DNA of 40,541 nucleotides, from contig JBBSHP010000001.1 of NCBI GenBank assembly GCA_038232555.1, positions 1-40,541 of the forward strand. The letters are read 5' to 3'. A model generated the notes under the pieces. The model made no database searches and was not told where the DNA came from. It saw only the letters and a program-made list of their open reading frames with translations. Each line of letters starts with the position of its first letter. Positions within the stretch are counted from its first letter, which is position 1. Below, one piece after another: positions 3,028 to 40,421 of this stretch. The position numbers were made by a program, and so were the translations under genes. This stretch comes from Bryobacterales bacterium (lineage in GTDB: Bacteria > Acidobacteriota > Terriglobia > Bryobacterales > Bryobacteraceae).

Positions 3028-3160
3028 ACATGTAAGGCTACGTTTTACGCGAGGCGAAGGCAGTCGGTGAGTTTAGCGGGATCGATATTCGATTCTACTA
3101 CTACGCGCGACTCACCAGTGCCGCTACATAAAGGACAGGACCGGATGGTCCACTCCAAGT

Positions 3161-4027: not shown

Positions 4028-5960
4028 CTTTCATAATACTGCGGCGGATGAAATGAGGCCGCTGTTTCACTTCTTCAAAGATCTTGGCTATATATTCCGC
4101 TACCAGACTAATCGCGAGCAGGTTCAGAGATCCAAAAACAAGAATAGAGGTCAGTACACTTGCGAATCCCTTTGGAGCAAGATCGGGAAATGCAACTTTC
4201 GCCAGTATCTCTCCGGCCATGAGAATCACTGAGAGACCGAAGAGCAATAGCGCGGACGCACTCAGGATACTCAGCGGAACATAGCTGAACGAGAGGATGC
4301 CCTTCTTCGCCCATCCAATATTCTTCAAAAAGCTATTGGTAGTTACTCCGAACATTCGTTCCGGGCGGACATAGTCCACCCCGACCTGTCGAAAACCGGC
4401 ATACGCTCGGACACCGCGCAGAAAGAGATCCCTTTCCGGGAACCGCAGCATGGCTTCCGCAACTCTTCTGTCGATCAAAGAACAGTCCCCCGCATCGTGC
4501 GGAATGCGGATATAGGAGAAATAATCAAAAATACGATAGAAGAGCTTGTAGGCTACACGCATCCTCCAAGGCGCCTCCCGCTTCACTCTACGGCCATAAA
4601 CCACGTCGTAGCCCTCGCGCCATTGTGCAACGAACTCCTCAATGAGCTCGGGGGGATCCTGTAAATCGCCATCGAGAAGCACACACGCGTTCTTGGACGC
4701 AATCTCCATACCACTGCGAAACGCGGCTTGCGACCCGAAGTTCCGGGAGTGGGAGATGCCCAGCACACGGCGATCGTTGCGAGTAATCGCTCGGATGACT
4801 TCTTCCGAGTTATCGGGACTGCAATCGTTCACAAACAGAATCTCATAATCGATGTTCAGCCGGGTGAAGGTGGTCTTTAGACGCTCATACATGACTGGAA
4901 TCGCCTGGCCATCCTTATAGCAAGCAATGATGGCCGAGACACTGTGTTTAGTGTCCAGGCCAAACTTCTTAGAAGATTGTAAATAACGATCTTTGTCCGG
5001 CAGATCGCGATACCAGTCAGCCATCCTGGCAAGGCCTTGCTCAAGTGGAACTTGGGGTGCCCACCCAAACCGGCTGCGCACCTTACTTATATCCGCGTAC
5101 CATTCAGCGAGGTCCCAAGAGCGGCTTGGCATGCTGAAAGATGGATCTTCACGAATCGAGAACAGGTCCTTGGCCACGCCTGCGAGGTCTGAAATGGTAG
5201 TCTTCCGGCCGGACCCGACGTTAAAAGACTCACCGTAGTCACGCTCGCCCAAGTTCAAAGCGACGTCGACAAATGCTTCGGTAACATCGTCTACATAGAT
5301 AAAATCGCGCGATATACGAGGATCGACAAGGTCGGGATACTCATGCTGGAGCCCATATCGCACCAGATTTGGAATCAGGCGTGAGGAGTCTTCGAGGGGG
5401 CCATAGACCGAATACAAGCGAAGGTTTACACAAGGGATACGTTTCTTTCTGCCGAGGAATTGGATAAGATTCGCGGCCGCCACTTTCGAAACAGCATAAG
5501 CGCTGTTAGGTGCCGGAAGGGAATCCTCGGACGGGGCCGAAGCATTATCGCCGTACTCGGAGGAACTCCCAGCGTGAACGTAACACGCGATCCTACGAGT
5601 TTCCAAGCGGGGCAATAAGCGGGAAATCAGGTTGAAGTTAGTCTGGTAAATCAACTGGCTATCTGTCTCAAACGAGTAGGCGCCGTAAGCAACACAATCG
5701 AAAACAGTCCGAGGCTTTATGGTTTCGAGAAGTGCATCCAGATTCGAATCGATCAGAAGGTCGGTAACCACCATCTTGTCTTTGGGTAGGTCCTCCAATC
5801 GCCAGGCAGGCAAACGGCTTGCGGTCCCGTAGACATCTTCACGATGCAGCAGGAGCGTTCTGACCAGATTGGCTCCCACGAACCCGCTGGCACCGAGAAC
5901 AAGAATAGGCCCTTGCAAGTGTTTGATTTTGTGCTCGAGGCCGGGAGTTGTGGCCATCAT
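3981..5960 (-). CDS. Bifunctional fusion: extended-SDR NAD-dependent epimerase/dehydratase (N-terminal) and GtrB/ArnC/DPM1-type GT2 polyprenyl-phosphate glycosyltransferase (C-terminal, two TM helices)
   Basis: N-terminal half: VLGASGFVGANL (Rossmann), GSSSEYG and YAVSK (SDR catalytic S and YxxxK). C-terminal half: VSAIIACYKD, FVNDCSPDNS, LLDGDLQDPPE (DxD). The C-terminal helices end in LVAEYIAKIFEEVKQRPHFI, typical of GtrB/ArnC enzymes. Confidence 0.8.
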   Translation of the reverse strand: MMATTPGLEHKIKHLQGPILVLGASGFVGANLVRTLLLHREDVYGTASRLPAWRLEDLPKDKMVVTDLLIDSNLDALLETIKPRTVFDCVAYGAYSFETDSQLIYQTNFNLISRLLPRLETRRIACYVHAGSSSEYGDNASAPSEDSLPAPNSAYAVSKVAAANLIQFLGRKKRIPCVNLRLYSVYGPLEDSSRLIPNLVRYGLQHEYPDLVDPRISRDFIYVDDVTEAFVDVALNLGERDYGESFNVGSGRKTTISDLAGVAKDLFSIREDPSFSMPSRSWDLAEWYADISKVRSRFGWAPQVPLEQGLARMADWYRDLPDKDRYLQSSKKFGLDTKHSVSAIIACYKDGQAIPVMYERLKTTFTRLNIDYEILFVNDCSPDNSEEVIRAITRNDRRVLGISHSRNFGSQAAFRSGMEIASKNACVLLDGDLQDPPELIEEFVAQWREGYDVVYGRRVKREAPWRMRVAYKLFYRIFDYFSYIRIPHDAGDCSLIDRRVAEAMLRFPERDLFLRGVRAYAGFRQVGVDYVRPERMFGVTTNSFLKNIGWAKKGILSFSYVPLSILSASALLLFGLSVILMAGEILAKVAFPDLAPKGFASVLTSILVFGSLNLLAISLVAEYIAKIFEEVKQRPHFIRRSIMKDGEIRFPTREQGRPL

Positions 5961-6101
5961 CTACTTAGCGTGTATATCAGCATATTCAGGCGGCTCAATT
6001 GCAAGACTATGAGTAAAATGAGATCTGGGGGATCGGGAGAGGACAACTGATAACCTTAACCAATCCCTCCAAACCTGTCTAATCGCTCCATCAGGGTTGT
6101 G

Positions 6102-7727
6102 TCAGTGATTAACAGTTGTCACGTCGAAGAGCAAGTTATCGCCCTTTTGAGCTTTGAACTCAAGCTTGTTATGGTCCGACAACAGCTTAGAAGGAAGCCA
6201 CTCCAGTCGTGAAACTGACGAATAGTAAACCCAGAACCTCGGGTGTGAGGAAACGAAACGCGAATAGTCCTCAATTTTTAAGGGAACCCAGTCCTTGATC
6301 TTCGCCAGGCCCCAGTCCGGGAGAAAGTCCGGGTACTGAACGGCGGTGCTGGGATCACTCAGATAGAAAACACGTGAAGCCAGTGCCTGCGAGCCATAAT
6401 AAGAGAGTTGTAAGAATAAAAGAGGGTTCGAGATAGCGATCGGGGAGCTGTCGTTCTCAGGAATAATCCCATTCAGGGAAGATATTGAGTCCACTCCAGG
6501 CGTGATCGGAAGCCGCCCCACTGACACAATCATGAACCATGCGAAAAATACCAGCACCAGGGTTGTGCCCACGATGGCACGTCCAGCGGCGGCGAAATAT
6601 GAAAAGAAACCGACCAGAATTGAGCAGCCGACCACCGCTGAGATCCCATATCGATCCATATAGTAGCCAGTAAATAGCTTTGCTAAGATCATGACCATGA
6701 ATGGAGCGAGGCTAAGGACGATCACGGCAATGGTTTCGTGTAGCGGTAATGCCCTCGGGTTCCCACTGGCTTCAGAACGGACTTTGCCAAGCTGGAGAGC
6801 CTGGGCGAGAGTCCCTATAGCAAGACACGCCAAGATAGGTATCAGCGTCGGTGTAAATAGATTGGGATAAAACTCCATGGCAGCCCGGTAGCTCGGCTTT
6901 GCCCAGAATACGGATGAGCGGAAGGTATAAGCATATAACCCGAACGAGGAGCCTTGAACGAGAGGCAGAAACCATAAAACGGGAATTGCGCCCAACCCAA
7001 GCGCAATCCAGACCGGCCAATCAATGCGCCGGGAAAGCCACGAGCGGGTTAGCTCTCCCGCCGCAATCGAAACAAATATCAAGACCGCATAATAGTGGTT
7101 CGCAACAGCCACGGCCAGCGTCGCCGCTAAGCCAATTAGCCACATTCTGCGAAATCGCCCTCTTTCAACCGAAGATTGCCAGCATACCAGAGCCGCGCCT
7201 GTAGTGCCGAGGAGTACACCATAGGGTCGCGCCTCGTATGCATAGCGGTGTGTAATGCTCACCAGAGGGAAAAGAATTGCCAGGAATGCGTAAGGCGCCG
7301 AGCACCTTTTCGAAACGAACCTGAACACACCTAAACTCATCGCCCAATAGCCGAGGATTGCGGGAAGACGGGTTGCTACATGTCCATATCCCAGGAGTTG
7401 ATGCGAAGCTCGAGTTAGGAGATAGCTCAAAGGAGGCTGGGAGTCAACGCCCGCCGCGAGCAGCGACCAGATATCTCCAATCCGCGGAAATCGTGAGATA
7501 TAGAATGTAAAAAACTCGTCGTACCACATGGGCTTTCGCCAGGCGTCGACAATTGTAAACGCCATATACAGGATGGTTAAACAACCGAGCCATAACAGCT
7601 TTCTCTTTTCAAGATGCTTTGCAAACTCCCCTATATAATGATCCAATGACCGAACCAGAAGTCGTCCGCCGAGTTGCTGCGCCGCTTCGGGATCGCCCCT
7701 CTGGCTACTTCTGAACTGGTTGGTCAT
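6102..7727 (-). CDS. GT-C fold glycosyltransferase, ArnT/PMT_2 (GT39/GT83)-like
   Basis: Polytopic membrane protein. After TM1 it has [11 protein letters not shown] (acidic DE motif), then QPPLSYLL and [16 protein letters not shown], the arrangement typical of ArnT/PMT_2 enzymes. ATG start, overlapping the upstream flavoprotein gene by 23 nt. Confidence 0.7.
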
Positions 7728-9390
7728 GGGATGAACCTGCTGCCGCGCTCATCGATCCTTTGTTCAAGGCGAGGTCTTCTGAAGCGGGGGTGCCGATTTG
7801 CTTTTCGTCCTTTTCACTGGCCTCTTCGTGGTAATCCGTTTCGGTGTTAACGGACCAGATATTGTCTTTGTTGGTACGCCCTTCAGCGATGTTGTCGACG
7901 GCGATCATTGCGGTGAGCATCGAATGATCTTGATTGTTGTACTTATGCATTCCGTTTCGGCCTACCAGAAACAGATTCTCGAATCGATCCAAATATTGTC
8001 TTAGGACCGGGAAGCGGGAATAGCTTCCGAAATAAGCGGGGTAGGTCTTTGGCATGCGGATTACAGTCGAGTCCAACACATCCGCTTGTTCTATGATGCC
8101 GATTTTATCCAACTCGGCTGCGGCCAATTGTGCCATCTCGGCATCGGGCTTTCGCCATAGTTCATCGCCTTCGTAACAGAAATATTCGACGCCTACCCAG
8201 ACTGTGTTGGCATCCGCAACCATATAGGGGCTCCAGTTATTAAATATTTGAAGCCGTCCGGCCACTACATCTGGCTCCTGGATGTAGATCCAGTTGTCAC
8301 TGATCAACTTGCGGGACTGTTCGTGCCGATCATTGACTTTAAGCTTACTCAGCAAGAGGCCTACGGTGATAAAATCGCGATAGATCAGGCCATCGCTAAT
8401 CTCCCGAATCTGATCCGGCACTTCCGTTTGCATGTCGTTAATGAGTTCTTTTATCGGCAGCGTCGAAAAGAAAAAATCTCCTTCCAACCTCTGCGCTTCA
8501 CCAGTCGGGTCACCCAGGGCGGTGATGGCCGTGACGCGGTCCCCCTCGATATGAATCTTGGTCACGTTGAGGCCTGTCAGGATCTGCCCGCCTTTGGCGG
8601 TCACAATTCTAGCCACCTCCTCCCACATCTGACCGGGTCCGTATTTCGGGTACATGAACTGCTCGATCAGAGATGTCTCGGTGTTTTTTTGTGCGAGGTC
8701 CTTTCGGGTTCTAAACTTCTGCTTCACAAAATGTAATATCGTCTTCGTTACAGATAGGCCTTTGATCCGTTGCTCACCCCATTCAGCGCTGATCTCATTG
8801 CAAGGGACGCCCCAGACCTTTTCCGTATAGGATTTGAAAAAAGTGAGGTATAACTCCCGGCCAAAGCGATTGATAAAGAACTGCTCCAGACTATTCACGT
8901 TTCGAATCGGAAACAAAGCGCTTCGTACATAGCTGACCCCGATGCGGACTGTTCTGAGCGCCCCGAGCTTCACAAGCGTATCTTTACTGAGCCGGATGGG
9001 GTACTCAAAGAACTTGCGTAAAAAGTAAATTCTGGATTTCCTGCTTCTCAATAACATCACCCGATCCGCCGACTCCGGCGCACGCGCGTTTTCATTGCTC
9101 CGCACTGTGCGCGTAGATCCCTGATATGCGATCTGTTGCTCTTCGCCGGTTTGGCGTTGGAGCGGTAGGATGTTGAGCCACCATTCCATTACCCGGTCGG
9201 ATTTCGAGAAGAAACGATGGCCTCCGATATCCATCCTGTTTCCTTTGTAGTTGATGGTGCGGGAGATTCCCCCCATGTACGTGCTTTTCTCAATAACAAT
9301 TGGAATAATATCCGTTCGATGCAGCAATTCGTATGCCGCGGTTAGACCGGCTGGACCGGCGCCCATGATAATTGCTCGTCTGCGATTCAT
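7705..9390 (-). CDS. NAD(P)/FAD-dependent oxidoreductase (amine-oxidase/UDP-galactopyranose-mutase-like superfamily)
   Basis: N-terminal dinucleotide fold [17 protein letters not shown]...[10 protein letters not shown], then [15 protein letters not shown]. 561 aa with an acidic, low-complexity C-terminal tail. The subfamily cannot be resolved by eye. Confidence 0.75.
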
Positions 9391-9465: not shown

Positions 9466-11124
9466 TTAACGCAATTGGGATAGCTTAGGCGGGTTGAGAT
9501 CGGCCTCCAGCAGCCAAGTGTCGCGAGTGCCAAAATAATCAAGGAGTTCATGGTTCTTCGATGCTCCCATGTCGCGCGCCCATACAATCTTTGCACGATC
9601 GATATCAGCGCGGTTGTAAACCCATTCGTGAGTGTAGTCGTGGCCAGGAGCGTAGCGCACCAGAATTAAATGTTGGCGCGTACCCGCGCCCATGCGCTCT
9701 AGGATTTTGGTCCGTTCGACGGCCCAGGGTTGGTTAGAGGCCACATAGCCAGGCCGGTGCAGCAGCGATGCGGCTAGCAGACTGGCGTGAAAGGCCAGGA
9801 TTATCAGGACGCCCAACACTCCCAGCGGGACATAACGCCAGCGCCAAGCAGATAATCGTTCCATACTGAGAGCGATCAACGCATATATCAAACCCGCCAA
9901 AGGAGCGATGTAATGAGGATGCACCGCCGCGCCGAACAGCATTGCGGCAATAGATACGCCGCACGTCCACATGGCGACGCGGTTCCAGGGAGTTTTCAAC
10001 AGAAACGGAAGTCCGATGAGTGACACCGTCAAGACTGGACCCAGATAAAAGTTCCAGGAACCGGCGAGTTTCTTTAAGCTCGCTTTGGCGAAACCGGATA
10101 ATGAGCGCTGCTCGTGATATTCCGTAAGCAGGTGATCGTACATCTCTTCTATTTCCTTGTGCCGGAACATCGTCGGCTTAGATCCGGCATGCCCCAATAT
10201 AGTAAACGGCACGGGGAAATACGTTCTGGAATTTACCTGATAAGGCATCTGGAGCGGATCCCCTGTGACACGGAAATCGTATAGAGCCATCGCCGCCGCG
10301 GCTGGTATCAGGATCAGAGATGTAGAGATACCGATGCGATACCAATCGCGACCGGAGAAGCGCCTCACTGCCGGTATAAACAGGAACAGAAATAAAAATA
10401 AGATGAACGTTGTTAACACACCCTCGAAAGGTCTGGTGTTTGCCAGTATGGCAAGACCCAGACCCAAAAGGCAGCCCTCGCGGAAGCGGCGCCGAGCCGT
10501 TAACTGCCGTGCCGCGCCAAATACCAGTGCTCCGCCCAAAGCGGCAACCGACCCGCCCCAATAACTGTAATCCCAATATTGAGCTACCAGGCGAGTCATG
10601 CAAACGAATGCTCCCAATAGGGCCCAGGCAGGAGGAGTCCATTCTAATAACATCCAATAGATCGCCGCGCAGGCAGCGGCTGTACTAAGCCACACTCCAA
10701 TTATGGGGCGGCTAAATAGGCGCTGCCCGATTGCCAGTGCAGCTCCCTGTCCAGGAGGATATTTGGATGAATAGGTAGGTTGTTGATTGACAAAAATAGT
10801 TTCGAAGTGAACCCACATAGGATGGGCGGGGTTGGTGAGCCGGCCAGAAGCAAAAGTGTCCGAGGCTAAAAGATAGCAGAATTCGTCGAGTACAAACGGC
10901 ACCGGCGGGTTCCAGATAAGACTTCGGCCGGCCCCGAACGCAAATGCTATCACACCGATCAGAACGATCGAAGGCGCACGGCGTGAGGCAATTCGGCTCG
11001 AGGCCTCCAGCCCCCGGCAGAACCATCGATCCAACAAATCGCTGATCGGGGAAACTGCCCGGCCGAGACGATGGTTACTAGCCGCAAAGTCTGCGGTTTC
11101 ATGTTTCGGGATTTGAGTAGGCAT
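9466..11124 (-). CDS. Polytopic membrane protein, probable GT-C-like glycosyltransferase (tandem paralog 1)
   Basis: Loop after TM1: LDEFCYLLASDTFASGRLTNPAHPMW...YPPGQG. It resembles the ArnT pattern DExxYxxxAxxxxxSGxxxxP. It has at least 10 hydrophobic segments and a conserved soluble C-terminus (HEWVYNRADIDRAK). Collinear with the 11158-12741 product. Confidence 0.55.
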   Translation of the reverse strand: MPTQIPKHETADFAASNHRLGRAVSPISDLLDRWFCRGLEASSRIASRRAPSIVLIGVIAFAFGAGRSLIWNPPVPFVLDEFCYLLASDTFASGRLTNPAHPMWVHFETIFVNQQPTYSSKYPPGQGAALAIGQRLFSRPIIGVWLSTAAACAAIYWMLLEWTPPAWALLGAFVCMTRLVAQYWDYSYWGGSVAALGGALVFGAARQLTARRRFREGCLLGLGLAILANTRPFEGVLTTFILFLFLFLFIPAVRRFSGRDWYRIGISTSLILIPAAAAMALYDFRVTGDPLQMPYQVNSRTYFPVPFTILGHAGSKPTMFRHKEIEEMYDHLLTEYHEQRSLSGFAKASLKKLAGSWNFYLGPVLTVSLIGLPFLLKTPWNRVAMWTCGVSIAAMLFGAAVHPHYIAPLAGLIYALIALSMERLSAWRWRYVPLGVLGVLIILAFHASLLAASLLHRPGYVASNQPWAVERTKILERMGAGTRQHLILVRYAPGHDYTHEWVYNRADIDRAKIVWARDMGASKNHELLDYFGTRDTWLLEADLNPPKLSQLR

Positions 11125-11157
11125 GGAACAAGCGGCAAACGACAGCGTAGAGGTGGT

Positions 11158-12741
11158 TCACCGAAGCTGAGATAGACGAGGCGAGCTCAGATCGGGTTCG
11201 AGCAGCCATACCCGCCGGTCTTGGAAATAGCGAAGGAGCTGGTCATTATGGGCCGGGCCCAGGTCCCGCGCCCAAACCACTTTGGCGCGATCGATGTCGG
11301 CTCTGTTATAGACCCATTCGTGAATGACGTCATGGCCTGGCGAGTATCGCACCAATACTAGATGGCGATTCGGATGGTTGTTCAGCCGTTCGAGAAGGTC
11401 CGCTCGTTCGGTAGCCCAGGGTTGCCGCCAGACCACCGCGAGCTGGCCGCCCCAGCTCCGCGCTGGAGCAAATAGAAGAAATACATGGAGAGTCAAGATT
11501 CCCAAGATGATCAGCCCGCCGGCATGTATATTACGCCACCGCCATTGAGAGAAGCGCTTCATCGACTGTGCTATTAACACATAGATCAGGGCCGTAAGGG
11601 GCGCGACGTAATGGGGCAACACGGCTGTGCTGAACAGCAACCCGGCCGCGGTTGCCCCGCATGTAAATATTGCGAACCGGCTCCACTGGTCTCGTAGCAA
11701 GGACGGCAATGCAATCAACGGAATGGTTAGACATAGCCCGGCATAAAACGTCCAGTTCTCCCAAAACTTCCTCGCTGCCGCTCTTGCAAACCCCCGCAGC
11801 GAAAGCTGGTCGGCATATTCACGATACAAATTCTCATACTCACCCTCGATTTCCTTATTGTTGAAGATAGGCTTTGGACCAGGATGACCCAACAGAGAAA
11901 ACGGTACGGGAAAATATCTTTCAGCATTCACCTGGTACGGCATCCGCAAAGGGTTTCCAGTGACCCGCTGGTTGTAAACCGCCATAACCGCAAACGTAGG
12001 GACTAGAACGAGAAAGACCGGAAGGACCATGTCGCAAAAAAATAAGCGCCGGGAGGGAAGCGAATCTTTGCGCAAGCAGACCAGGAGCATAATCACGGCG
12101 CACGCCGTGACTAAACACCCTTCGTAGGGCCGCGTGTTGGCCAGGATCGCCAGGCCGAATCCCATTCGCAGACCATCGGCGAACCGGAACCGGTCCGGAA
12201 TTCGAGGAATTCCGTGAAACAAGAGAGCTCCGCCTAAAGCCGCCAGGGATCCACCCCAAAAGCTGTGCCCCCAGTATTGAGCTACCAGCCGGACCATTGC
12301 GATGAAGGCCCCGGCCAGAGCCCAAGCGCCCGGCGCCCATGCCAATAGCATCCAGCAGACGGCGGCGCAGGCGCATGCCGTGCTCAGCCAAACCGCAATA
12401 ATAGGATGGCCGAACAGCGCCTGCCCCGCCGCTAAGACCAAGCCTTGGCCCGGAGGGTATTTAGATGCGTAAGTGGGCTGCTGATTAATGTGAATGCTTT
12501 CAAAGTGAACCCACATTGGATGGGTCGGATTAGCCATCCGGCCTGAAGCAAAAGTATCCGCGGCTAGTAGATAAGAAAACTCATCCAGATATGAGGGAGC
12601 GGGAGTTCCCCAAATCAGGGCTCGGACGGCGCATAGCGTAAATGCCAGCACGCCAAACGTTGCAACGCACAGGTTGCCGCGTGATGCCAGGACGTCCAGC
12701 TTCTCAATGAATGGTAGGCGCGGTAGGGCTGAAGATAACAT
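11158..12741 (-). CDS. Polytopic membrane protein, probable GT-C-like glycosyltransferase (tandem paralog 2)
   Basis: LDEFSYLLAADTFASGRMANPTHPMWVHFESIHINQQPTYASKYPPGQG, with the same C-terminal block HEWVYNRADIDRAKVVWARD. The ATG start overlaps the UbiA-family gene by 38 nt. Confidence 0.55.
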   Translation of the reverse strand: MLSSALPRLPFIEKLDVLASRGNLCVATFGVLAFTLCAVRALIWGTPAPSYLDEFSYLLAADTFASGRMANPTHPMWVHFESIHINQQPTYASKYPPGQGLVLAAGQALFGHPIIAVWLSTACACAAVCWMLLAWAPGAWALAGAFIAMVRLVAQYWGHSFWGGSLAALGGALLFHGIPRIPDRFRFADGLRMGFGLAILANTRPYEGCLVTACAVIMLLVCLRKDSLPSRRLFFCDMVLPVFLVLVPTFAVMAVYNQRVTGNPLRMPYQVNAERYFPVPFSLLGHPGPKPIFNNKEIEGEYENLYREYADQLSLRGFARAAARKFWENWTFYAGLCLTIPLIALPSLLRDQWSRFAIFTCGATAAGLLFSTAVLPHYVAPLTALIYVLIAQSMKRFSQWRWRNIHAGGLIILGILTLHVFLLFAPARSWGGQLAVVWRQPWATERADLLERLNNHPNRHLVLVRYSPGHDVIHEWVYNRADIDRAKVVWARDLGPAHNDQLLRYFQDRRVWLLEPDLSSPRLSQLR

Positions 12742-13711
12742 TCAGAATCGGCATGTCGACCAGTAGCGCTAAAACCATCACGATCGAACAGGCAATCACC
12801 GCTATCATCAAGATGCGCTCGCGGTACAGGCCCTCGGGCCGCTGAACGACGCTATCCGGCTTGAAGGCTAAATCAAGATATACGGCCATCACTAGAGCCA
12901 TAAACGGGACCGATAGGATTAACTCCAGGCGGTATCGCATGATAAAAGCCCCAAAGAACAGCATCGCCGCGGAGCTATAGAACATCACGGACGCCAAAAG
13001 GCGCTCTTCCGTATAGAAACTGAAAGATTTTCGATAAGAGGCTGCCAGAAGCGGATTCCTAAGATCCCGGTATTCGGCATATCTCTTGAGAGCCATGAAG
13101 TAGCAGCCAACCATCCAATAGCTGAGCAGCAAGGAGGCTGGTGGAATGATTACGCTGGTGACGATAAACCATCCCGCGAGCATGCGTAGAGGATTGTTTA
13201 TAGATTCGGACAGGACGTCCAAATACGGCAGATCCTTGCTTCTAACGGGCGAAATGTTATAGACGCAGCCCATCACCCACAGTACGAACATCGTGGCCGT
13301 GAATCGAATCGAAACCGTCCATGCCAGCCCCATTCCCGCAATCATAAGCGCGATCCATTGCACATAAGCAAGCGGAATGTTGACCCGGCCCGAAGGCACT
13401 GGCCGTGAAAACTTGGTGGGATGCAGGCGATCAAATGGCGCATCCAGCACTTCGTTGATAACGTAATTGCTCGAAGCAATCAGGCAAGTCGATAAGAGGC
13501 CAAAAATAACACGCTGTAGCAGGCCGGGTGGGAATCTGGAAGTCTCAAGACTTAAAGCGACTACAATTCCAGGGAGTACAAATACATTCTTCACCCAATG
13601 ATCTGTGCGGGCTATCTCATAATGCGCTCGCAAACTGGGGCGTTGGGTCTCGGACGGCCTCCATTCGCCGCCTGATTCGCTTTTCCTGGCTTCAGCACTG
13701 GCGGAAGACAT
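12704..13711 (-). CDS. UbiA-family prenyltransferase with a decaprenyl-phosphate 5-phosphoribosyltransferase (DPPRS, Rv3806c-like) signature
   Basis: HWVKNVFVLPG near the N-terminus, and NYVINEVLDAPFDRLHPTKFSRPVPSGRV. The latter is NDxxD-type Asp-rich motif 1 followed by the HPxK..RP...G.V block that I associate with DPPRS. About 8 predicted TM segments, 335 aa. Confidence 0.7.
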   Translation of the reverse strand: MSSASAEARKSESGGEWRPSETQRPSLRAHYEIARTDHWVKNVFVLPGIVVALSLETSRFPPGLLQRVIFGLLSTCLIASSNYVINEVLDAPFDRLHPTKFSRPVPSGRVNIPLAYVQWIALMIAGMGLAWTVSIRFTATMFVLWVMGCVYNISPVRSKDLPYLDVLSESINNPLRMLAGWFIVTSVIIPPASLLLSYWMVGCYFMALKRYAEYRDLRNPLLAASYRKSFSFYTEERLLASVMFYSSAAMLFFGAFIMRYRLELILSVPFMALVMAVYLDLAFKPDSVVQRPEGLYRERILMIAVIACSIVMVLALLVDMPILNVIFSPTAPTIH

Positions 13712-14507
13712 TAGCTAGTTCCTTATAACCTGAGATTCCCATCCATTGCTTTTGTCTGCTTGCTTTCCGGCCTACGATCACGCATGATATACCCGCCGCG
13801 TCGGCAGCCACTCCGTCTACTTCGGGCCGATCCCCTATATACAGCACTTCGTCTTTGGCTACGGCCAAACGTTTCATTACCACCTCCAGCCCACGTGGAT
13901 GGGGCTTGAATACCTGAATATCGGCATCCTGCGCGCTTGCAATCACTTCAAAAAACCGCTCCAGTCCTAAAGCGTGAATCTTCCTGGTTGGATCGTAATC
14001 GGAAAGGGCGGCTAGTCGAATCCCAGAATTTTTAGCGTCCTGCAAAAACCCGATTAACCCCGAATAGATGGCGAGCGGAAGAAATGGGAGCGGTTCTTGC
14101 TCCATCCACCGGGTCACATATGCATTGACGATCTCAGGCGCCATACCGGTCCACTCACTCGTGAGACGAAGTTGGTCTCCCACAGTTTGTGAATCCGTCT
14201 GGGGGCTTCTGCGTAGCGTCTCCTGTGCGCGCCGATAGCTTCTTAGAATACGGATGGTCGAGATTCCTTGCAATGGACAGGTTAAATGGTGTTGAAGCAG
14301 CTTCCGAAACATGGCCCGGCGCACCCGCGCTTGGCCATACAGGGTGCCGTCGACATCCAGGATCACGGCTTTAAGCCGCGTAACATCTGGCAACAATTTT
14401 ATACTGAGCAACGGAGTTCGAGTGCCGATTGGCAGCTTTAATTCGCCTACTGAATTCAATTGCGCCACAAAGTTTGTTGGGATCTTTCCCAGGGAAGGCG
14501 TTTCCAC
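13692..14507 (-). CDS. HAD-superfamily hydrolase (phosphatase)
   Basis: Motif I ILDVDGTLY (DxDxT), motif II LAALSD, motif IV YIGDRPEVDG. The ORF-track start is a GTG at 14507, overlapping the upstream gene by 52 nt. In-frame TTG codons at about 14396 and 14393 would give a more typical short N-terminus, so the start is uncertain. Confidence 0.7.
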   Translation of the reverse strand: METPSLGKIPTNFVAQLNSVGELKLPIGTRTPLLSIKLLPDVTRLKAVILDVDGTLYGQARVRRAMFRKLLQHHLTCPLQGISTIRILRSYRRAQETLRRSPQTDSQTVGDQLRLTSEWTGMAPEIVNAYVTRWMEQEPLPFLPLAIYSGLIGFLQDAKNSGIRLAALSDYDPTRKIHALGLERFFEVIASAQDADIQVFKPHPRGLEVVMKRLAVAKDEVLYIGDRPEVDGVAADAAGISCVIVGRKASRQKQWMGISGYKELANVFRQC

Positions 14508-16534
14508 TCGACCCGATCCACATCGTACGTGGCTCCCGCCAATAGACTCTTGGTTGTAAATCGCAAAGTTACGGTCCTGTTCCGCTCAAAGGCAATGGGG
14601 AAAACAATCTCGGATTTGTAAGGCGGCAAGGATATCGGAATGCTCCTCGGCGAGCCCTCCGGTGTGACCAGATACCGGGGAGTTAATCCAATTAGAGGAA
14701 CTTTGGTCCATGGGTTCCGGACCGCATAGCTGAGTTTAACCACAGCAATCCTGTCTAATCCATTCCTGGATGGAATGACCACGCAATTGCAGTCTTTATT
14801 CAAGGTTAACGTCTCAAATTGCTGGCTTGGCGCAATCCAGTCGACCGGCTTGCGATGCCACAGCACCGCGTGCTCAATCTCCTCGAGCGGATCGTAGTTA
14901 TTGACGACATCTTCGAAAAATGGCCAATTCACGTTTTCAAGCCACTCTTCGTAGTCAAAGTACCGTTGAGAGATGGTCTGGACAAATTCCGGCTTCAGCT
15001 CTCGAAAAGCGGTGGAATAACGGCTCCGGCGTTCTGGTCCTACTTCCAATGTCAGGTAGTCTCCAACAGGATGGAAAATACCGTAGTGAGCTTCCAGCAA
15101 ACCGGCGTACGTGGACCAGAGCGAGAGAGGGCCGGTATTCTGACGGTGGCTGTCGATCACCCGCACCGATTCGGCCATGTAGCGATTCCAGGTGTCGCCC
15201 AGATACTTGCTATATGCTGGTCTCGCGGTGCGGATATGGCGGGCCAATGCACTCACGTTGCGAGCGGAAAAATAACTGAGCGGCAGTGCCGCTATCAGGC
15301 ACACGGCCAGGAATACCGAACCAAAGATGAGAGACCGGCGGCGCAACTGCCCTTCACTTTGAAAAGCTTGCGAAATTGCGCCGATGTTATGGGCAACCCA
15401 GATCACGGTTACCAGGATTAACACGCGGCATAACGGAAAGGTATAATGTCTTCCCAGCATGCCAAGAAGCGAAATACTCGATAACATGCCGTAGAAAAGC
15501 ATGATCGCTACAGGCAGTTCCCAGTCTGCCGAAATCCGCATCTTTCCCCTTACTATCCTCGGAAGCAACAAGAGTAGAAACACTCCGCCAACCAGAGTTG
15601 GCATAAAAGGTAACCAGTAATGGCGGGACGTAAGTAAATCCGCCCATGTACCGAGGAATGGATTTGGGGGGCTGCCGTCATACCAGAACTTATCCGCTGG
15701 TAGTTCGACCAGAGCATAATGTATAGCTTTTGACATTCCCTCGATTCCACAGAGTAAGGCGCCCAGTGCAAACGTACTAACGGTCGCAGTAAGCATAACC
15801 ACAGCGGTAAACCGGACATTTCGCCACAACGCAGTCTTAGCCTCGGTGTGTTGCCCGACCCCGAATCGAAAGAACTGAAAAGCCGAACAAGCGAGCGACA
15901 CAACAATGAAGGCGATCGTCAACGCGATCCCTTGCTCAAACCCGAGCAGCAGCCCTAGCGCAATGCACAGCCCGGTCCCAATTCCTTTCATCGTGTCGCT
16001 AAATCCTGCTTGCAGGAACGCAAATGCCAGAACGGGCGCGGTCGAACGCACTCCAATCAAGCTATTACCCGGGCCGGCGCTGAATGGAAATAGAATTTCC
16101 AGGATGAAGATCACCCCGGTCATCGCTATCAAGGCCCGGCCGAATTTCCTTGTGACTGCGTAAGTAAAACTAACGAGAGCAAGAACAAAAACCAGAAACG
16201 AGATCGCCTGCCGCGATAGTTCCGCCGCATTGATCGTTTTTCCAAACAGCGCAAAGAGAGGGTAGTGAAGGGCCGGAATTCCGAATCCAAGATAAGACGG
16301 GAAATCAAGTCCAGGGGTCTGACCCGCTGCCGTCCTCCTGAGCGAATTGAAGGTAGTGAAAGGACCATCGGCCGGGAACCCAGTGAACCAAAAAGCAGCC
16401 AAAACGCTACTTGAGACGTAAAAGGCGGACCAGGCGATCAGAAAGGCCAGAGCGCCGGTTTGCATGATCCGTTCCAGGTTCCAGCCAGAACCCACTGGGG
16501 AACGATATGTCTCGGAAATAGACGCGGGTATCAT
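14456..16534 (-). CDS. Large polytopic membrane protein with a roughly 250-aa C-terminal soluble domain; function unknown, possibly GT-C-like
   Basis: 692 aa, ATG start 6 nt after the PQQ gene stop. The first loop, DGPFTTFNSLRRTAAGQTPGLDFPSYLGFGIPALHYPLFALFG, loosely follows the G..P..DF..Y.P...LFG pattern of GT-C enzymes. I recognise no named family. Confidence 0.45.
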   Translation of the reverse strand: MIPASISETYRSPVGSGWNLERIMQTGALAFLIAWSAFYVSSSVLAAFWFTGFPADGPFTTFNSLRRTAAGQTPGLDFPSYLGFGIPALHYPLFALFGKTINAAELSRQAISFLVFVLALVSFTYAVTRKFGRALIAMTGVIFILEILFPFSAGPGNSLIGVRSTAPVLAFAFLQAGFSDTMKGIGTGLCIALGLLLGFEQGIALTIAFIVVSLACSAFQFFRFGVGQHTEAKTALWRNVRFTAVVMLTATVSTFALGALLCGIEGMSKAIHYALVELPADKFWYDGSPPNPFLGTWADLLTSRHYWLPFMPTLVGGVFLLLLLPRIVRGKMRISADWELPVAIMLFYGMLSSISLLGMLGRHYTFPLCRVLILVTVIWVAHNIGAISQAFQSEGQLRRRSLIFGSVFLAVCLIAALPLSYFSARNVSALARHIRTARPAYSKYLGDTWNRYMAESVRVIDSHRQNTGPLSLWSTYAGLLEAHYGIFHPVGDYLTLEVGPERRSRYSTAFRELKPEFVQTISQRYFDYEEWLENVNWPFFEDVVNNYDPLEEIEHAVLWHRKPVDWIAPSQQFETLTLNKDCNCVVIPSRNGLDRIAVVKLSYAVRNPWTKVPLIGLTPRYLVTPEGSPRSIPISLPPYKSEIVFPIAFERNRTVTLRFTTKSLLAGATYDVDRVEWKRLPWERSQQTLWRN

Positions 16535-16540: not shown

Positions 16541-18565
16541 TTACGGAAGGGCAAACGCAACGTAAGCATCTCCAGGCTTCGTTTCGAGTTGCCCTGCTCC
16601 ACCCGCGGCTATCGCCACGTACTGCTTTCCGTTTACTTCATAAGTGGCCGGAGTCGCATATCCGCCCGCTTCTAGTTGCGCTTCCCATAAAATTGTTCCC
16701 GCAGTTTGGTCGAAAGCGCGAAATTTCTCATCTCGCGTGCCACCAATAAAGACCAAGCCTCCCGCAGTCACAATGGATCCACCAAAGTTCTCGGTTCCAG
16801 TCGCCGGTACCCCCTTTGCCGTCAACTCTTTGTACTCGCCCAAAGGCACCTGCCAGACAATCTCGCCCTTATTCAGATCGATGGAACTCAACTTTCCCCA
16901 GGGTGGCTTAACAGCCGGGTAACCTTCATCGTCCTGGAACTTATGAAAGCCGGTGAAGTCGAACGGATAACTCAACCTGTGCCACAACTTGGAGTCAACG
17001 ATGGAGAGAATGTAGGGGATCTCGTTGGAGTTAACGAACAGTGTCCCTATTGAGGGGTCAAACGATCCGCCGCTCCAATTCGCACCGCCATGAAACCCTG
17101 GGAAAATGATAGTTCCCTGCTTGGAAGGAGGTGAAAATATAGGGCCGGCTTTCAATGTCCGAAATTGTCTCAGAGCCGATGCGTGCGACTTAGGCGAGAG
17201 ATCCGTTAGGTCGGCTTCGGTTAAGTTATGTCGTGAGAATGGCGGGGGCTTCACCGGGTATGGTTGAGTAGGCCAAGCCTGCTCCCCGGGAAGACCGGAT
17301 GCGGGAACCGCGCGCTCTTCGATGGGCAAGAGGGGTTCTCCCGTTTCCCGGTCCAACAGAAAGACGTAACCCATTTTGGTAAGCTGGGCCACCGCGTCCA
17401 CCGGACGCCCATTATGATGAACCGTAACCAGGATCGGCGGACAGGGCAGATCGTAGTCCCACAGGTCGTGATGGACTGCCTGGAAATGCCAGACTCGTTT
17501 ACCCGTGGCTGCGTTTAAGGCGACCACGGAATCGCCGAAAAGATTTTTCCCGTGGCGGTCGCCGCCATAATAATCAAACGTGGGCGACCCGATGGCCAGA
17601 AATACAAGGCCTCGTTTCTCGTCCACAGTCATGCCGGCCCAATCGTTGGTGCCGGCCGCAGTTTTCCACGCCTCCGGTGGCCATGTTTCGTAGCCGAACT
17701 CCCCCGGTTGCGGGATGGTGTGGAAAATCCATTTTCGTTGGCCCGTCCGAACATCATAGGCCCGCACGTGCCCTGGCGCCTCTGGCCGCGGTCCTTCTCC
17801 CGTTTTCGATCCAACGATAATTAGATTTTGATAGATCACTCCGGGGGAAGTCACCATGTAGCCGCTCTTCCCGAGTTCCCGCTCCAGGCCTTGCCTGAGA
17901 TCCACCGATCCGTTGCTGCCGAATTCCGGAATCGGTTTACCGGTTTCGGCCTTGAGCGCAATCAGGGTATGGTCCGCAGCGAACAGGATTCGCCGGTCCC
18001 CGCCTTCTCTCCAGAATGCAACGCCCCGGTTCACTCTCCACGGGTCGAGTTTCTCTGTTTTCAGCACGCCTGGAATACCGTGGAATGCTAAAAGAGCAAA
18101 TACGCCGGCGCCCAGGAACAGCAGCGGCCTCAGCCACTTCATCCATCTTTTCGAGGCGGCCCGCGAAATGCCTAACACAGCGATGAGCGGGAACGCGCTA
18201 TACCAAGGAAAGGAAGGACCTTGGCCTGCCGGAAACGGATCATAAGTCCAGAGGTGCTTGCCGCTGGAGGCGTCTAGCGCGATCAACTTCAGCCGAGGAG
18301 AGGTGACATACATCACCCCATCCACTACGATAGGCGTGCATTCAATCGTGGTCTTCGGTTCATCGCTCTTATCCCCGGTATGATAAATCCAGGCGACCCG
18401 AAGCTTTCGCACATTCGACCGGTTGATCTGGTCCAATGTAGAATATCGAGTTCCACCAGGATCCCCCCCCGTTACCGGCCACTCGCGTGAACTCTTAACA
18501 GTAGAGCCGGCCGGCAACCCGCATAAAAACCAACTTAACAGCAGAGCTGTAAGTCTGTTTTGCAT
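16541..18565 (-). CDS. PQQ-dependent (quinoprotein) dehydrogenase, glucose/sugar dehydrogenase-like beta-propeller, secreted
   Basis: Signal-like N-terminus MQNRLTALLLSWFLCGLPAG, then WPVTGGDPGGTRYSTLDQINRSNVRKLRVAW, ECTPIVVDGVMYV, ALDASSGKHLWTYDP, NRGVAFW and repeated propeller blocks (ALNAATGKRVWHFQ, RAFDQTAGTILWE). An unusual hydrophobic insertion lies at aa 111-177. Confidence 0.85.
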   Translation of the reverse strand: MQNRLTALLLSWFLCGLPAGSTVKSSREWPVTGGDPGGTRYSTLDQINRSNVRKLRVAWIYHTGDKSDEPKTTIECTPIVVDGVMYVTSPRLKLIALDASSGKHLWTYDPFPAGQGPSFPWYSAFPLIAVLGISRAASKRWMKWLRPLLFLGAGVFALLAFHGIPGVLKTEKLDPWRVNRGVAFWREGGDRRILFAADHTLIALKAETGKPIPEFGSNGSVDLRQGLERELGKSGYMVTSPGVIYQNLIIVGSKTGEGPRPEAPGHVRAYDVRTGQRKWIFHTIPQPGEFGYETWPPEAWKTAAGTNDWAGMTVDEKRGLVFLAIGSPTFDYYGGDRHGKNLFGDSVVALNAATGKRVWHFQAVHHDLWDYDLPCPPILVTVHHNGRPVDAVAQLTKMGYVFLLDRETGEPLLPIEERAVPASGLPGEQAWPTQPYPVKPPPFSRHNLTEADLTDLSPKSHASALRQFRTLKAGPIFSPPSKQGTIIFPGFHGGANWSGGSFDPSIGTLFVNSNEIPYILSIVDSKLWHRLSYPFDFTGFHKFQDDEGYPAVKPPWGKLSSIDLNKGEIVWQVPLGEYKELTAKGVPATGTENFGGSIVTAGGLVFIGGTRDEKFRAFDQTAGTILWEAQLEAGGYATPATYEVNGKQYVAIAAGGAGQLETKPGDAYVAFALP

Positions 18566-21130: not shown

Positions 21131-23056
21131 TCACTGGCGCGCATAGATAACCTTATCCCCAAATTTGGCGGTGGGCTGATAGTGTGTTCGAATATAGTCG
21201 AGCACAGGAAAAGTTTGCGCGGTGTCGCACGCCAAACGCGATGAACGCCACACGATCGAGGGGAACGTGCACCCCGTGTGAAGACACAATCCGTATGTAG
21301 CCTGGAAATCGCTACCCTGATTGGCAATTACGTAGCGCGGCGTCGCATTCTCGATACGCTCCAAGTCGGTGGCAAGATATCGCTGCGCCGGCGCCAGCGC
21401 GGTAAACTGCGTCGAAAAAATTGGACTGCGGCGATGGGCAGCGAAATTGATTCCTCCCCCGAGCGCAACGTCCAACACAGGTTCGTTCTCCGCGGTATGA
21501 GAAAGGACATAGGAATAGATTTGCGGACCCATCCCGTCCTGTATCTTGATCGGACCCGCTTGGGTGTCCAGGCGGACATAATGACTCTTCCTTTCAGCGA
21601 CGAATCCGGTACCCGCCCGCAGCAGATCGTAACCGCCCAACAAAACCAGCAGCGTCAAAGGCACAGTGCCACCCGCCGGCACCCAGGTTGGCGCGCCTAG
21701 GACGGGTTTGTATTGTATAACCAGCATCAATAAGTAGGGTCCCACTATGAACCAGATCGGATAGGCGGCGACGGTCACTGCCGTAAGCTGGCTCATCGTA
21801 CCTCCGAATAAGCTCCGCAGGGACATCACGAGAGCCGATGTAAGAGCTACGAAAAGCACAGCCGTGTGATACTGCCATTGCGACCTGGTCCAGAAATTAC
21901 GCACCACACCCACAGCCAGCACCATCCAGAGAACGATTGACGTCCACATGACAGGCAGCAGCACGGTCCCGGTCGAGAGAAAGAAGCCCAGAATTTTTGC
22001 CGCCGTCAGGTGGCCTTGAAGAACCGGGATTTCACGAGCGCAGTATGGCAGATAAAAGATCGTCGCGATCAACCCGGCAGCGGCTCCCAGGAAAAGTAAG
22101 AACTGATGTCTCTTGCTAAGACCTAGATTCGCGGCGCGAGTTGCCGATAAGGCGGCCACAACGATGCCGGCGTGACCCAGAGCCACCGCTCCGCCGAACA
22201 GACCTAAGCCGGTGGGCCACCACGGGCAACTAAGCGTCGCAATCCCATATCCGGCTATACCTGCGATTAGATTAGCGGGCCCTGTAACAACCTGGACGAC
22301 AAAGTAGCAGAGCAAAGCCGGCGCACAACAAAATGAGATCAGTAGACCGTAGTGCACCAGCCAATCCCTGAACGGCCGATTAGCGAACCACATCATCCGA
22401 TCGACGACGGCTGTAGCCGCGAGGGCGCCTGCCACGCCGAGTATAAACTCCGGCTTAGTAAGCAGCCCGATCGTGGCTCCTGTTACCATCCAGAACCTGG
22501 CGCGAGTATCGAAAACGCCGCTTCGCAGGTACGCGAAGGATTCCCGCAATACGAGCAGCATCCCCACCATGCCCAAGGGGATGGCGGGCGTATAGACCTG
22601 AAGCGAAAATAATGCGAAATTGCCGGTGTTTGTCGCGCCCGCGCACGCCAACGTAAATGCGATAAGGATCGGAAGAGGGCGCGGAAGTAGACGGCGGGCA
22701 GTATCCCAAGTCAGAAGCACCACCGCCGTGCTGATTACATCGAGGCATAGCTGAACAGTTATGTAGGATGCCCCGAAAACGCGTATTGCCATTCCTAGCA
22801 CAGCAATGGCAAGCGGCGGATATTGCCAGGCAAAATCGCGGTACGGAATTTCTCCCGATGCCGCGCGATAGCATTCGAATATCCAGCGGGACGAATCACC
22901 CCAAAAGCTGTCGAGTTTCCCGAAGCGCAGGGCACTGCAGAAGGCACAGACCAGCACCAGAGCCGCAATGCTAACCGTCGCCGAATGCGCACGGCGGTGG
23001 AGCTTTCCGGGCTGAACCTGCTCCGTGGCAGGGATACCGATTTCAGCTGTCGACAT
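21131..23056 (-). CDS. Polytopic membrane protein, GT-C-like (GT87/DUF2029-like motif)
   Basis: 641 aa with many TM segments. The first loop, DSFWGDSSRWIFECYRAASGEIPYRDFAWQYPPLA, resembles the PYRDF...YPP block of DUF2029/GT87 polyprenyl-phosphate-mannose-dependent transferases. Flanked by the only sizeable gaps inside the array. Confidence 0.5.
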   Translation of the reverse strand: MSTAEIGIPATEQVQPGKLHRRAHSATVSIAALVLVCAFCSALRFGKLDSFWGDSSRWIFECYRAASGEIPYRDFAWQYPPLAIAVLGMAIRVFGASYITVQLCLDVISTAVVLLTWDTARRLLPRPLPILIAFTLACAGATNTGNFALFSLQVYTPAIPLGMVGMLLVLRESFAYLRSGVFDTRARFWMVTGATIGLLTKPEFILGVAGALAATAVVDRMMWFANRPFRDWLVHYGLLISFCCAPALLCYFVVQVVTGPANLIAGIAGYGIATLSCPWWPTGLGLFGGAVALGHAGIVVAALSATRAANLGLSKRHQFLLFLGAAAGLIATIFYLPYCAREIPVLQGHLTAAKILGFFLSTGTVLLPVMWTSIVLWMVLAVGVVRNFWTRSQWQYHTAVLFVALTSALVMSLRSLFGGTMSQLTAVTVAAYPIWFIVGPYLLMLVIQYKPVLGAPTWVPAGGTVPLTLLVLLGGYDLLRAGTGFVAERKSHYVRLDTQAGPIKIQDGMGPQIYSYVLSHTAENEPVLDVALGGGINFAAHRRSPIFSTQFTALAPAQRYLATDLERIENATPRYVIANQGSDFQATYGLCLHTGCTFPSIVWRSSRLACDTAQTFPVLDYIRTHYQPTAKFGDKVIYARQ

Positions 23057-40381: not shown

Positions 40382-40392
40382 AGGCTTAATGT

Positions 40393-40418
40393 AAATTAAA
40401 AAAGCTGGATATCCGCTT
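40393..40418 (-). terminator. Possible intrinsic terminator or leader hairpin between the upstream ORF and the NusG-like gene
   Basis: The minus strand reads AAGCGGATATCCAGCTT: a 6-bp stem with one bulge and an ATAT loop. It runs into TTTTTTAATTT, starts 4 nt after the stop at 40422-40424 and ends about 12 nt before the ATG at 40381. Confidence 0.3.
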
Positions 40419-40421
40419 GAC

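Follow-up and report, generated by a model that had tools for sequence, protein, structure and literature searches.

The DNA analysed here is a 40,541-nt stretch from a Bryobacterales bacterium (hereafter the window, over the whole of which positions are counted). Its roughly 30 genes form a single long minus-strand array on the map of open reading frames (ORFs), which by Pfam and NCBIfam scans reads as an exopolysaccharide operon, and within this Wzx/Wzy/Wza/Wzc-type operon lies the subject of this report, a five-gene module at 9466-16534. In order of transcription, and all on the minus strand, the module comprises a 692-aa ORF for a membrane protein resembling glycosyltransferases of the C fold class (GT-C; 14456-16534), a candidate phosphatase of the HAD-IA type (13692-14507), a 335-aa UbiA-superfamily protein of the PPPRS/DPPRS-like kind (12704-13711; DPPRS, decaprenyl-phosphate 5-phosphoribosyltransferase) and two GT-C candidates of 527 aa (11158-12741) and 552 aa (9466-11124). 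The 692-aa ORF lies directly upstream of the HAD gene and overlaps its longest ORF by 52 nt, the HAD stop and the UbiA start overlap by 20 nt (13692-13711), and the UbiA stop overlaps the start of the 527-aa gene by 38 nt (12704-12741), while 33 nt separate the two GT-C candidates at the end of the module. The HAD gene is translationally coupled to the UbiA gene. The motifs, overlaps and gene order quoted in a preliminary description of this DNA, which had been made from its letters and proposed a lipid-linked pentofuranose donor module, are all present in the ORF map and the translations.

The UbiA-type protein carries the sequences HWVKNVFVLPG and NYVINEVLDAPFDRLHPTKFSRPVPSGRV. The Pfam UbiA model (PF01040) matches it with an E-value of 4e-23 and 82.3 bits against a cut-off of 34.2, which places it within the superfamily, and the characteristic superfamily motif is present as N86-E87-x-x-D90-x-x-x-D94. 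Among the NCBIfam models the HAD-UbiA fusion family NF006088 ranks first (94 bits, E 6e-27, under its cut-off), the DPPRS models NF008976/7/8 give 89.8, 81.1 and 74.6 bits (E 2e-25 to 9e-21) against cut-offs of 234, 207 and 474, and the models for generic prenyltransferases (6e-15), haem O synthase (1e-9) and proteobacterial UbiA (3e-3) are weaker. As these scores, taken over the whole protein, fall far below the curated values, including the DPPRS equivalog cut-off, the protein is better described as DPPRS-like than as an equivalog, and falls into a separate clade. The nearest structure in the PDB is that of Rv3806c from Mycobacterium tuberculosis (8j8j), matched over nearly the full length with an E-value of 1e-14 at approximately 30% identity.

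The substrate contacts of Rv3806c have been defined in its structure with bound phosphoribosyl pyrophosphate (PRPP) by Gao et al. (PMC10994848), where R22, K87, R90 and K143 make up the pyrophosphate cluster, K28, Y70 and Y157 contact the 5′-phosphate, Q135 contacts the ribose O3, and N73 and D77 are the Mg ligands. In the alignment, 16 of the 19 compared Rv3806c sites are identical in the window protein (R22, K28, Y70, N73, D77, D81, H84, P85, K87, R90, Y138, K143, K191, R192, E195 and R207), and these 16 are invariant in 120 of 120 homologues; K208 is likewise identical, but it is not invariant among the 120 close homologues. For the set of PRPP, Mg and 5′-phosphate contacts alone (R22, K28, Y70, N73, D77, K87, R90, Q135, Y138, K143, Y157 and K208) the count is 10 of 12. 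By comparison, none of the UbiA, CyoE and MenA proteins of E. coli has Y70 or H84, and K28 and K87 are mostly replaced in them as well. The window clade has a signature of its own, consisting of the SESxNNP motif and of E87, G148 and N173, of which the invariant E87 stands in place of D74 of Rv3806c. In a neighbour-joining tree, calculated without bootstrap, the window clade together with plasmid-encoded proteins of Rhizobium and Rhodobacter is the sister of the DPPRS group, and the three E. coli enzymes fall outside. The profile ranking, the structural match, the residues and the tree therefore all support a DPPRS-like rather than a quinone- or haem-type enzyme, as the preliminary description had recognised, and by homology and residue conservation the protein would fit the synthase position of a three-component system of the DPPRS/ORF15 kind.

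The clade to which the enzyme belongs is very large and strongly conserved. Out of 8,000 scored candidates 5,952 reach an E-value of 1e-5 or better against the window protein, with the top 120 being 64-75% identical to it, and a genome scan returned 377 relatives, the best 80 of which are 57-71% identical and come from Acidobacteriota, Gemmatimonadota, Myxococcota, Chloroflexota, Actinomycetota, Planctomycetota, Nitrospirota, Latescibacterota, Armatimonadota and Methylomirabilota. Overall the clade thus spans 57-75% identity over about ten phyla, which is unusually high for a membrane enzyme and suggests strong constraint, horizontal spread, or both. The partner proteins are less alike, at approximately 40-50% identity for the HAD protein and 45% for the GT-C proteins. 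Many clade members have already been named decaprenyl-phosphate phosphoribosyltransferase by JGI. A search for phage homologues found none.

The HAD product contains the sequences DVDGT and GDRPEVDG and is matched by the Pfam models Hydrolase (E 6e-18) and HAD_2 (E 3e-17), with TIGR02253 (CTE7) as the top NCBIfam model, under its cut-off. With Pfam scores of this order for the UbiA and HAD products, their motifs are more than a coincidental resemblance. All four HAD motifs are intact, namely motif I as D51xD53GT55, motif II as S169, motif III as K201 and motif IV as G225-D226...D231, and they are kept in 16 of 16 family members. As the relatives are only 209-241 aa long, the true start probably lies further downstream than that of the longest ORF. 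Among 74 related loci with enough upstream sequence, in which HAD genes were sought by six-frame hidden Markov model (HMM) and jackhmmer searches, a same-strand HAD gene directly precedes the UbiA gene in 38, and in 35 of these it is of the HAD-IA type found in the window. The remaining three (L006, L007 and L022; L-numbers are labels of related loci), as well as L087, have a HAD protein of a different subfamily. The HAD proteins of the sister cassettes (L006 9281-9910, L087 9262-9891 and L022) belong to PF12710, a swap within the superfamily at a fixed position, and for the one in L006 the phosphatase domain at the N terminus of the fusion family NF006088 gives a match with an E-value of 1e-50.

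The significance of this match lies in the Citrobacter youngae system described by Kelly et al. (PNAS 2024, PMC11127046), where ORF15, a fusion of a HAD phosphatase and a UbiA-type synthase, converts PRPP to lipid-phosphate-linked ribofuranose (lipid-P-Ribf) and its N-terminal HAD domain has been shown to be a phosphoribose phosphatase (PRP). Judging from the domain layout, NF006088 would represent the ORF15-type architecture. The occurrence of two HAD subfamilies at one position provides strong indirect evidence for a role as 5-phosphatase. The window protein is also related to the HAD protein of the Rhizobium pRL10 UbiA-HAD-GtrA operon (30% identity, E 2e-31). As the phosphatase of a three-component system it would be intact and coupled to the synthase, but of the HAD-IA and not the PRP type. 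The true DPPRS of Rhodococcus adjoins a PAP2 gene. The HAD-IA protein is therefore a credible candidate for a polyprenyl-P-ribose-5-phosphate 5-phosphatase that replaces the mycobacterial PAP2 enzyme, and the non-orthologous replacement suggested in the preliminary description gains support from both the motifs and the PRP-type HAD proteins at the same position in the sister loci.

The three membrane proteins of 527, 552 and 692 aa have no Pfam, NCBIfam or PDB match by sequence, and for the 527-aa protein neither Pfam nor the PDB gives a match even when its family profile is used; the Pfam models PMT_2 and PMT in particular match none of 9466-11124, 11158-12741 and 14456-16534, nor any of 56 members of the 527-aa family. 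Predicted structures are more informative. The AF2 model of the 527-aa protein (pLDDT 91.5, pTM 0.92) was compared with the PDB by Foldseek, and the top 27 matches are all GT-C enzymes, with ArnT (5ezm, E 6e-6, TM 0.51) as the best, followed by ALG12, STT3, PglB, AftA, AftB and Emb. In GT-C enzymes a catalytic acid follows the first transmembrane helix, where the PMTs have a DE motif, and the 527-aa protein has D53 and E54 directly after this helix, both invariant in 56 homologues. The 552-aa protein is evidently a tandem paralogue, 56% identical to the 527-aa protein over 517 residues, and since it retains the LDEF(C/S)YLLA motif behind transmembrane helix 1 and would inherit the fold by homology, it can be regarded as a GT-C candidate as well. 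The 692-aa ORF, for which the database gene call is 669 aa and 18 homologues were found, gives an AF2 model with a pLDDT of 87 and a pTM of 0.86, for which Foldseek lists ArnT (5f15, E 4e-6) at the top, with EmbA/B, EmbC, OST, AftD, PglB and ALG6 also among the matches. Its C-terminal beta-sandwich domain shows weak local matches to CBM22 and CBM36 (probability ~0.92, E 0.08-0.27). The models thus support a GT-C fold for the 527- and 692-aa proteins, and the GT-C assignment that the preliminary description had made for the tandem proteins appears to be justified.

With more than 5,800 clusters at 90% identity the 527-aa family is very large, and Pfam has no model for it. A further polytopic protein of the operon, with 641 aa (21131-23056), has about 13 transmembrane helices, a soluble C-terminal domain and 358 representative clusters; in its loop 1, Y72 and P81 are invariant and D54 and D74 nearly so. 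It likewise has no Pfam or PDB match, even by profile, and may represent either another GT-C-like enzyme or a transporter. In hhalign comparisons with the 527-aa family the 692-aa family has a probability of 0.7% and the 641-aa family one of 4%, so that no relationship can be claimed in either case. The GT-C candidates and the other membrane proteins of the window also have no sequence similarity to the polytopic partners of the fusion-type systems of Burkholderia and NGR234, a comparison confined to these two systems.

The pairing of these genes recurs well beyond the window. Neighbourhoods were scored by six-frame HMM searches in those 55 related genome loci that have 3 kb of sequence on either side. 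A HAD gene is present within 3 kb of the UbiA gene in 33 of them and a GT-C-like gene that can be recognised as such in 29; 44 loci have at least one of the two, and 18 have both. The commonest partner after the HAD gene is a GT-C of the PMT_2 type, and other loci have PTPS_related or PMT-like proteins as the GT-C partner. The exact 527- and 692-aa families accompany HAD-UbiA only in a small acidobacterial group. There, L006, L022 and L087 share the order WecA-DAO-GT2-641aa-PQQ-(533-aa soluble protein)-HAD-UbiA-527-like, L081 has PQQ-methyltransferase-692-like-HAD-UbiA-527-like, and L100 has PQQ-692-like-HAD-UbiA. Conservation of the HAD-UbiA-GT-C triad, as the preliminary description had envisaged it, therefore stands for HAD-UbiA and for GT-C adjacency across phyla, but not for the particular GT-C families of the window, which are found in few acidobacterial loci only. 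Very large Big_7/PA14 repeat proteins are encoded convergently and directly after HAD-UbiA(-GT-C) in three loci (L081 12722-15997, L084 2320-6195 and L100 13793-17674), and have no counterpart in the window.

The remainder of the operon fits a Wzx/Wzy-type polysaccharide. At its head are a NusG paralogue (39851-40477), Wza, Wzc and a weak Wzx-like protein, followed by seven GT4 and one GT2 glycosyltransferases and a weak Wzy-like 455-aa protein (TIGR04370, under cut-off). Next come a hexapeptide acyltransferase, an initiating transferase of the WecA/MraY type, a DAO flavoprotein (24147-25286), the 641-aa protein and a PQQ dehydrogenase, and then the five module genes. These are followed by a flavoprotein similar to UDP-galactopyranose mutase (UGM), a PMT_2 GT-C and an SDR-GT2 fusion, and at the tail by a methyltransferase, a split transketolase and a PEP-CTERM protein. 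The NusG paralogue probably acts as an antiterminator dedicated to this operon, similar in kind to RfaH/UpxY, and a NusG gene is also found near the cassette in L081 and L082. The N and C halves of the transketolase are separate genes in 1343-4027, a region that also holds the S-adenosylmethionine-dependent methyltransferase, and beyond them the PEP-CTERM/DUF4114 protein at 264-1106 suggests an exosortase-linked exopolysaccharide system.

The three genes that follow the module, all on the minus strand, look like a second lipid-phosphate-sugar module (3981-9390). The fusion at 3981-5960 combines the Pfam Epimerase and Glycos_transf_2 domains; its best NCBIfam match is PgfS, then the ArnC type, and its SDR domain is GalE/ArnA-like. 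The protein at 6102-7727 matches Pfam PMT_2 with 29.9 bits against a cut-off of 26.1, and the flavoprotein at 7705-9390 has eukaryote-type UDP-galactopyranose mutases as its best PDB matches (E 2e-12). As the window's only SDR forms a fusion with a GtrB/ArnC/PgfS-like GT2 and has its own PMT_2 GT-C, this module would be separate and based on a nucleotide sugar, and it may deliver a furanose such as galactofuranose via a lipid carrier. Homologues of the flavoprotein occur near HAD-UbiA in about 5 of 80 loci.

On the other side of the module, the minus-strand gene at 16541-18565 encodes a PQQ beta-propeller dehydrogenase with a signal peptide (Pfam PQQ E 2e-202; TIGR03074 511 bits, under the cut-off of 832). 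Its homologues and those of the 692-aa protein are direct neighbours in L099 and L100 and are separated by one gene in L081, so that each 692-aa GT-C homologue examined has a PQQ gene before it, either directly or with one gene in between. The same gene closes a conserved WecA-DAO-GT2-641aa-PQQ block in L006, L022, L087 and L100. With a presence in only 2 of 80 genome loci that have the window UbiA type, it was rejected as a general partner of the latter.

These observations are most readily explained if the module at 9466-16534 is an extracytoplasmic pentofuranosylation system for the Wzx/Wzy/Wza/Wzc polysaccharide of its operon, a reading that we regard as probable. First, the UbiA-type enzyme would move 5-phosphoribose from PRPP to polyprenyl phosphate at the cytoplasmic face, as its homology and contact residues suggest. 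Next, the co-translated HAD-IA protein would strip the 5-phosphate to give polyprenyl-P-ribofuranose, to which the gene coupling, the motifs and the PRP-type HAD proteins of sister loci all point. A flippase, presumably encoded outside the window, would then carry the lipid-linked sugar to the periplasmic face. Finally, one or more of the 692-, 527- and 552-aa GT-C proteins would put the pentofuranose on the polymer or its repeat unit, the fold being shown by modelling and the donor and acceptor suggested by adjacency.

Biochemical precedent for the same logic exists in ORF15 and ORF12 of C. youngae and counts in favour of this model. ORF12, the founder of GT136, is a GT-C enzyme that adds the sugar, in the periplasm, to the O antigen, and the small transporter ORF14 is the predicted flippase (PMC11127046). 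The module resembles the Citrobacter O1/O2 systems in the predicted roles of its PRPP-dependent UbiA-type synthase, HAD 5-phosphatase and extracytoplasmic GT-C acting on the finished glycan, and its 692-aa protein, with a GT-C body and a C-terminal beta-rich domain, is also similar to ORF12 by the published layout. It differs in that the synthase is only 28-34% identical to those of fusion-type systems, the phosphatase is a separate HAD-IA rather than a PRP-type HAD (the PRP type occurring in sister loci), a small transporter gene is missing from the window, and the backbone is of the Wzx/Wzy type whereas that of the prototype is ABC-transporter-dependent. The strategy has been described as widespread, with examples in Gram-negatives, Gram-positives, a phage, O antigens and exopolysaccharides, and published variants include a separate phosphatase, MATE or SMR transporters, several GT-Cs and epimerases (PMC11127046). 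The enzymatic reading of the preliminary description is upheld, but its novelty claim no longer stands: its view that examples beyond the mycolata are limited to a few cases has been overtaken by this work, which also lists exopolysaccharides among the targets.

Three further systems invite comparison. The mycobacterial pathway for decaprenyl-phosphate arabinose (Rv3806c, Rv3807c, DprE1/DprE2 and Emb/Aft) has a homologous first enzyme with conserved residues for PRPP, Mg and the lipid phosphate, and likewise ends in GT-C-fold users; in the window, however, a HAD protein replaces the PAP2 enzyme, DprE1/DprE2 are absent, and the context is an exopolysaccharide operon and not cell-wall arabinan. 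The closest cultured relatives are the plasmid-borne UbiA-HAD-GtrA operons of Rhizobium and Rhodobacter (pRL10, R. johnstonii 3841), in which the UbiA proteins, annotated only as 'UbiA family prenyltransferase', are 40-42% identical and share the E/G/N signature and the SESxNNP motif with the window protein, and the HAD protein is of the same HAD-IA type at the 30% identity given above. Unlike the window, these operons have the order UbiA-HAD, include a GtrA-type flippase and lack an adjacent GT-C. The Gtr/Arn/Pgf systems, with a GT2 of the GtrB/ArnC/PgfS kind, a flippase and a GT-C, similarly use a lipid-phosphate sugar through an extracytoplasmic GT-C, and 3981-7727 of the window would be such a module, but their donor is made from a nucleotide sugar by the GT2 and not from PRPP by a UbiA-type enzyme.

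The sugar delivered by the module is most likely D-ribofuranose, an assignment that we make with moderate confidence. Pfam and NCBIfam scans of the window found no FAD_binding_4 (DprE1-type), adh_short (DprE2-type) or PAP2 protein, no window protein matches the DprE1-like or DprE2-like proteins of Burkholderia in blastp, and a stand-alone SDR epimerase is likewise absent from the window. The lack of a DprE1-/DprE2-type gene noted in the preliminary description is thus borne out, and together with that of a stand-alone SDR it makes D-ribofuranose the default. Glycans containing arabinofuranose (Araf) are accompanied by DprE1/E2 homologues (PMC11127046). Among about 100 loci a DprE1-like gene is found near the UbiA type in one, where a second, DPPRS-like UbiA gene is adjacent.

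An alternative that we consider unlikely is that the lipid-linked Ribf is epimerised before transfer to Araf or xylofuranose (Xylf) by the SDR domain of 3981-5960, the DAO protein of 24147-25286 or the PQQ dehydrogenase of 16541-18565. In Citrobacter O2 the GalE-like SDR ORF13 alone turns lipid-linked Ribf into Xylf (PMC11127046), and the window does possess a GalE/ArnA-like SDR domain, but its fusion to a GT2 with a dedicated GT-C points to the separate UDP-sugar module described above. The constant company of the PQQ dehydrogenase and the 692-aa homologues would also suit epimerisation, as would the extra oxidoreductases of known fusion-type systems. In Burkholderia stagnalis the locus encodes a polytopic protein, a methyltransferase, HAD-UbiA, a FAD enzyme, two SDRs, another FAD enzyme and GtrA, and in NGR234 it encodes HAD-UbiA, an oxidoreductase, a polytopic protein, a GMC oxidoreductase, an SMR transporter and an epimerase. 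A periplasmic PQQ enzyme could, however, perform the oxidation but would lack a reductant for the rest of the epimerisation, PQQ and DAO accompany the UbiA type in no more than about 2 of 80 genome loci, and none of the window proteins is DprE1- or DprE2-like. The substitute epimerases put forward in the preliminary description are therefore weak candidates, given that PQQ and DAO travel with the WecA-GT2-641-aa block and not with HAD-UbiA generally; the flavoprotein at 7705-9390 was rejected as a DprE1 substitute for being UGM-like.

It is also conceivable, if rather improbable, that HAD-UbiA makes a lipid-linked pentose while the flanking GT-Cs are not its users, acting for instance on hexose-phosphate lipids, or that the pentose decorates another envelope glycan or proteins. 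Such a view draws on the members of the 527-aa family that lie mostly away from UbiA, some of them beside GT2-GtrA fusions, on the variation in the GT-C family beside HAD-UbiA from locus to locus (PMT_2, PTPS_related, 527-aa or 692-aa), and on L099, where PQQ, 692-aa and 527-aa homologues occur with no HAD-UbiA in 15 kb. Against it stand the overlap between the UbiA stop and the 527-aa start, the HAD gene overlapping or abutting the 692-aa gene, and the recurrence of both arrangements: a 527-aa homologue directly follows UbiA in four independent acidobacterial loci (L006, L022, L081 and L087), and a 692-aa homologue adjoins HAD-UbiA, before the HAD gene, in two (L081 and L100). The SDR-GT2 enzyme, as another possible source of donor, already has its dedicated PMT_2 GT-C next to it. 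Among loci of the 527-aa family (L089, L090 and L091), L090 has two tandem copies, whose neighbours are a GT2-GtrA fusion and an O-antigen cluster of the ABC-transporter type.

Several findings weigh against pentofuranosylation of the operon's polysaccharide by the route proposed. The window UbiA scores far under the curated DPPRS cut-offs (90 against 234 bits), and two substrate contacts of Rv3806c are changed throughout its clade, Q135 of the ribose contact to G148 and Y157 of the 5′-phosphate contact to N173, with a 3-residue insertion near them. Position 135 is, however, T, S or N in the fusion-type and Legionella relatives, which suggests that Q135 is no strict requirement. Nowhere in the window is there room for a GtrA-, SMR- or ArnE/F-like flippase, as seen from a jackhmmer search for GtrA-like ORFs and from the gaps between assigned genes, all below 240 nt, and the sole MOP-type protein is the Wzx-like one at 34867-36438. 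The 527-aa homologues are often orphan genes or neighbours of GT2-GtrA fusions with no UbiA nearby, so that the family does not fix the donor and its pentofuranose assignment comes from gene coupling. Lastly, in three loci a window-type UbiA gene lies next to a complete HAD-synthase fusion or no more than 3 kb from it (L007 1079-3145, L035 5604-11008 and L093 5269-9421, the last on a Rhodobacter plasmid). The Rhodobacter 885-aa fusion has a UbiA domain that seems to lack several catalytic residues, although this is uncertain since the alignment derives from a hand-trimmed segment.

Two synthases in one locus would be redundant and are hard to explain if both make the same product, which keeps alive, at low probability, a more unusual possibility: that the window UbiA clade uses a donor or lipid, or forms a product, different from that of Rv3806c and ORF15, and that the pairing of PQQ and 692-aa proteins in the acidobacterial cassette reflects extracytoplasmic oxidation of a lipid-linked or polymer-bound pentofuranose. 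A different product would account for the three loci with both synthase types. That the UbiA-type protein is instead a prenyltransferase or another donor/acceptor transferase with only an ancestral resemblance to DPPRS appears very improbable, for although the scores under every curated DPPRS cut-off, the clade-invariant E87, G148 and N173 with the loop insertion, and the co-occurring full fusions in L007, L035 and L093 would agree with it, the 16 of 19 identical Rv3806c sites include 5′-phosphate and pyrophosphate contacts that classical UbiA enzymes do not share, variation at position 135 extends to fusion-type and Legionella relatives, and the recurrent pairing with a phosphatase and a GT-C fits a sugar-phosphate lipid product.

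Pentofuranosylation through a PRPP-derived lipid donor thus leaves current understanding standing, and the module is best filed as a divergent variant of known lipid-linked pentofuranose systems, not as new biology. Its variant features are a HAD-IA instead of a PRP-type HAD, GT-C families that are unclassified, with at least one large family that has no Pfam or CAZy home, and the absence from the window of a flippase gene and of DprE1/E2 or a stand-alone epimerase. Should the oxidative modification by PQQ and the 692-aa protein prove true, it would be a route to modified pentoses without known precedent. If the proposed pathway is correct, the strategy of passing from PRPP to a lipid-linked pentofuranose extends far past the mycolata and the O antigens of enterobacteria to the Wzx/Wzy exopolysaccharides of Acidobacteriota and many other soil phyla, where its spread would run via an uncharacterised synthase clade that is both very large and highly conserved, and it would offer concrete means to predict furanose decorations of soil exopolysaccharides and to annotate membrane proteins, thousands of which now count as 'hypothetical'.

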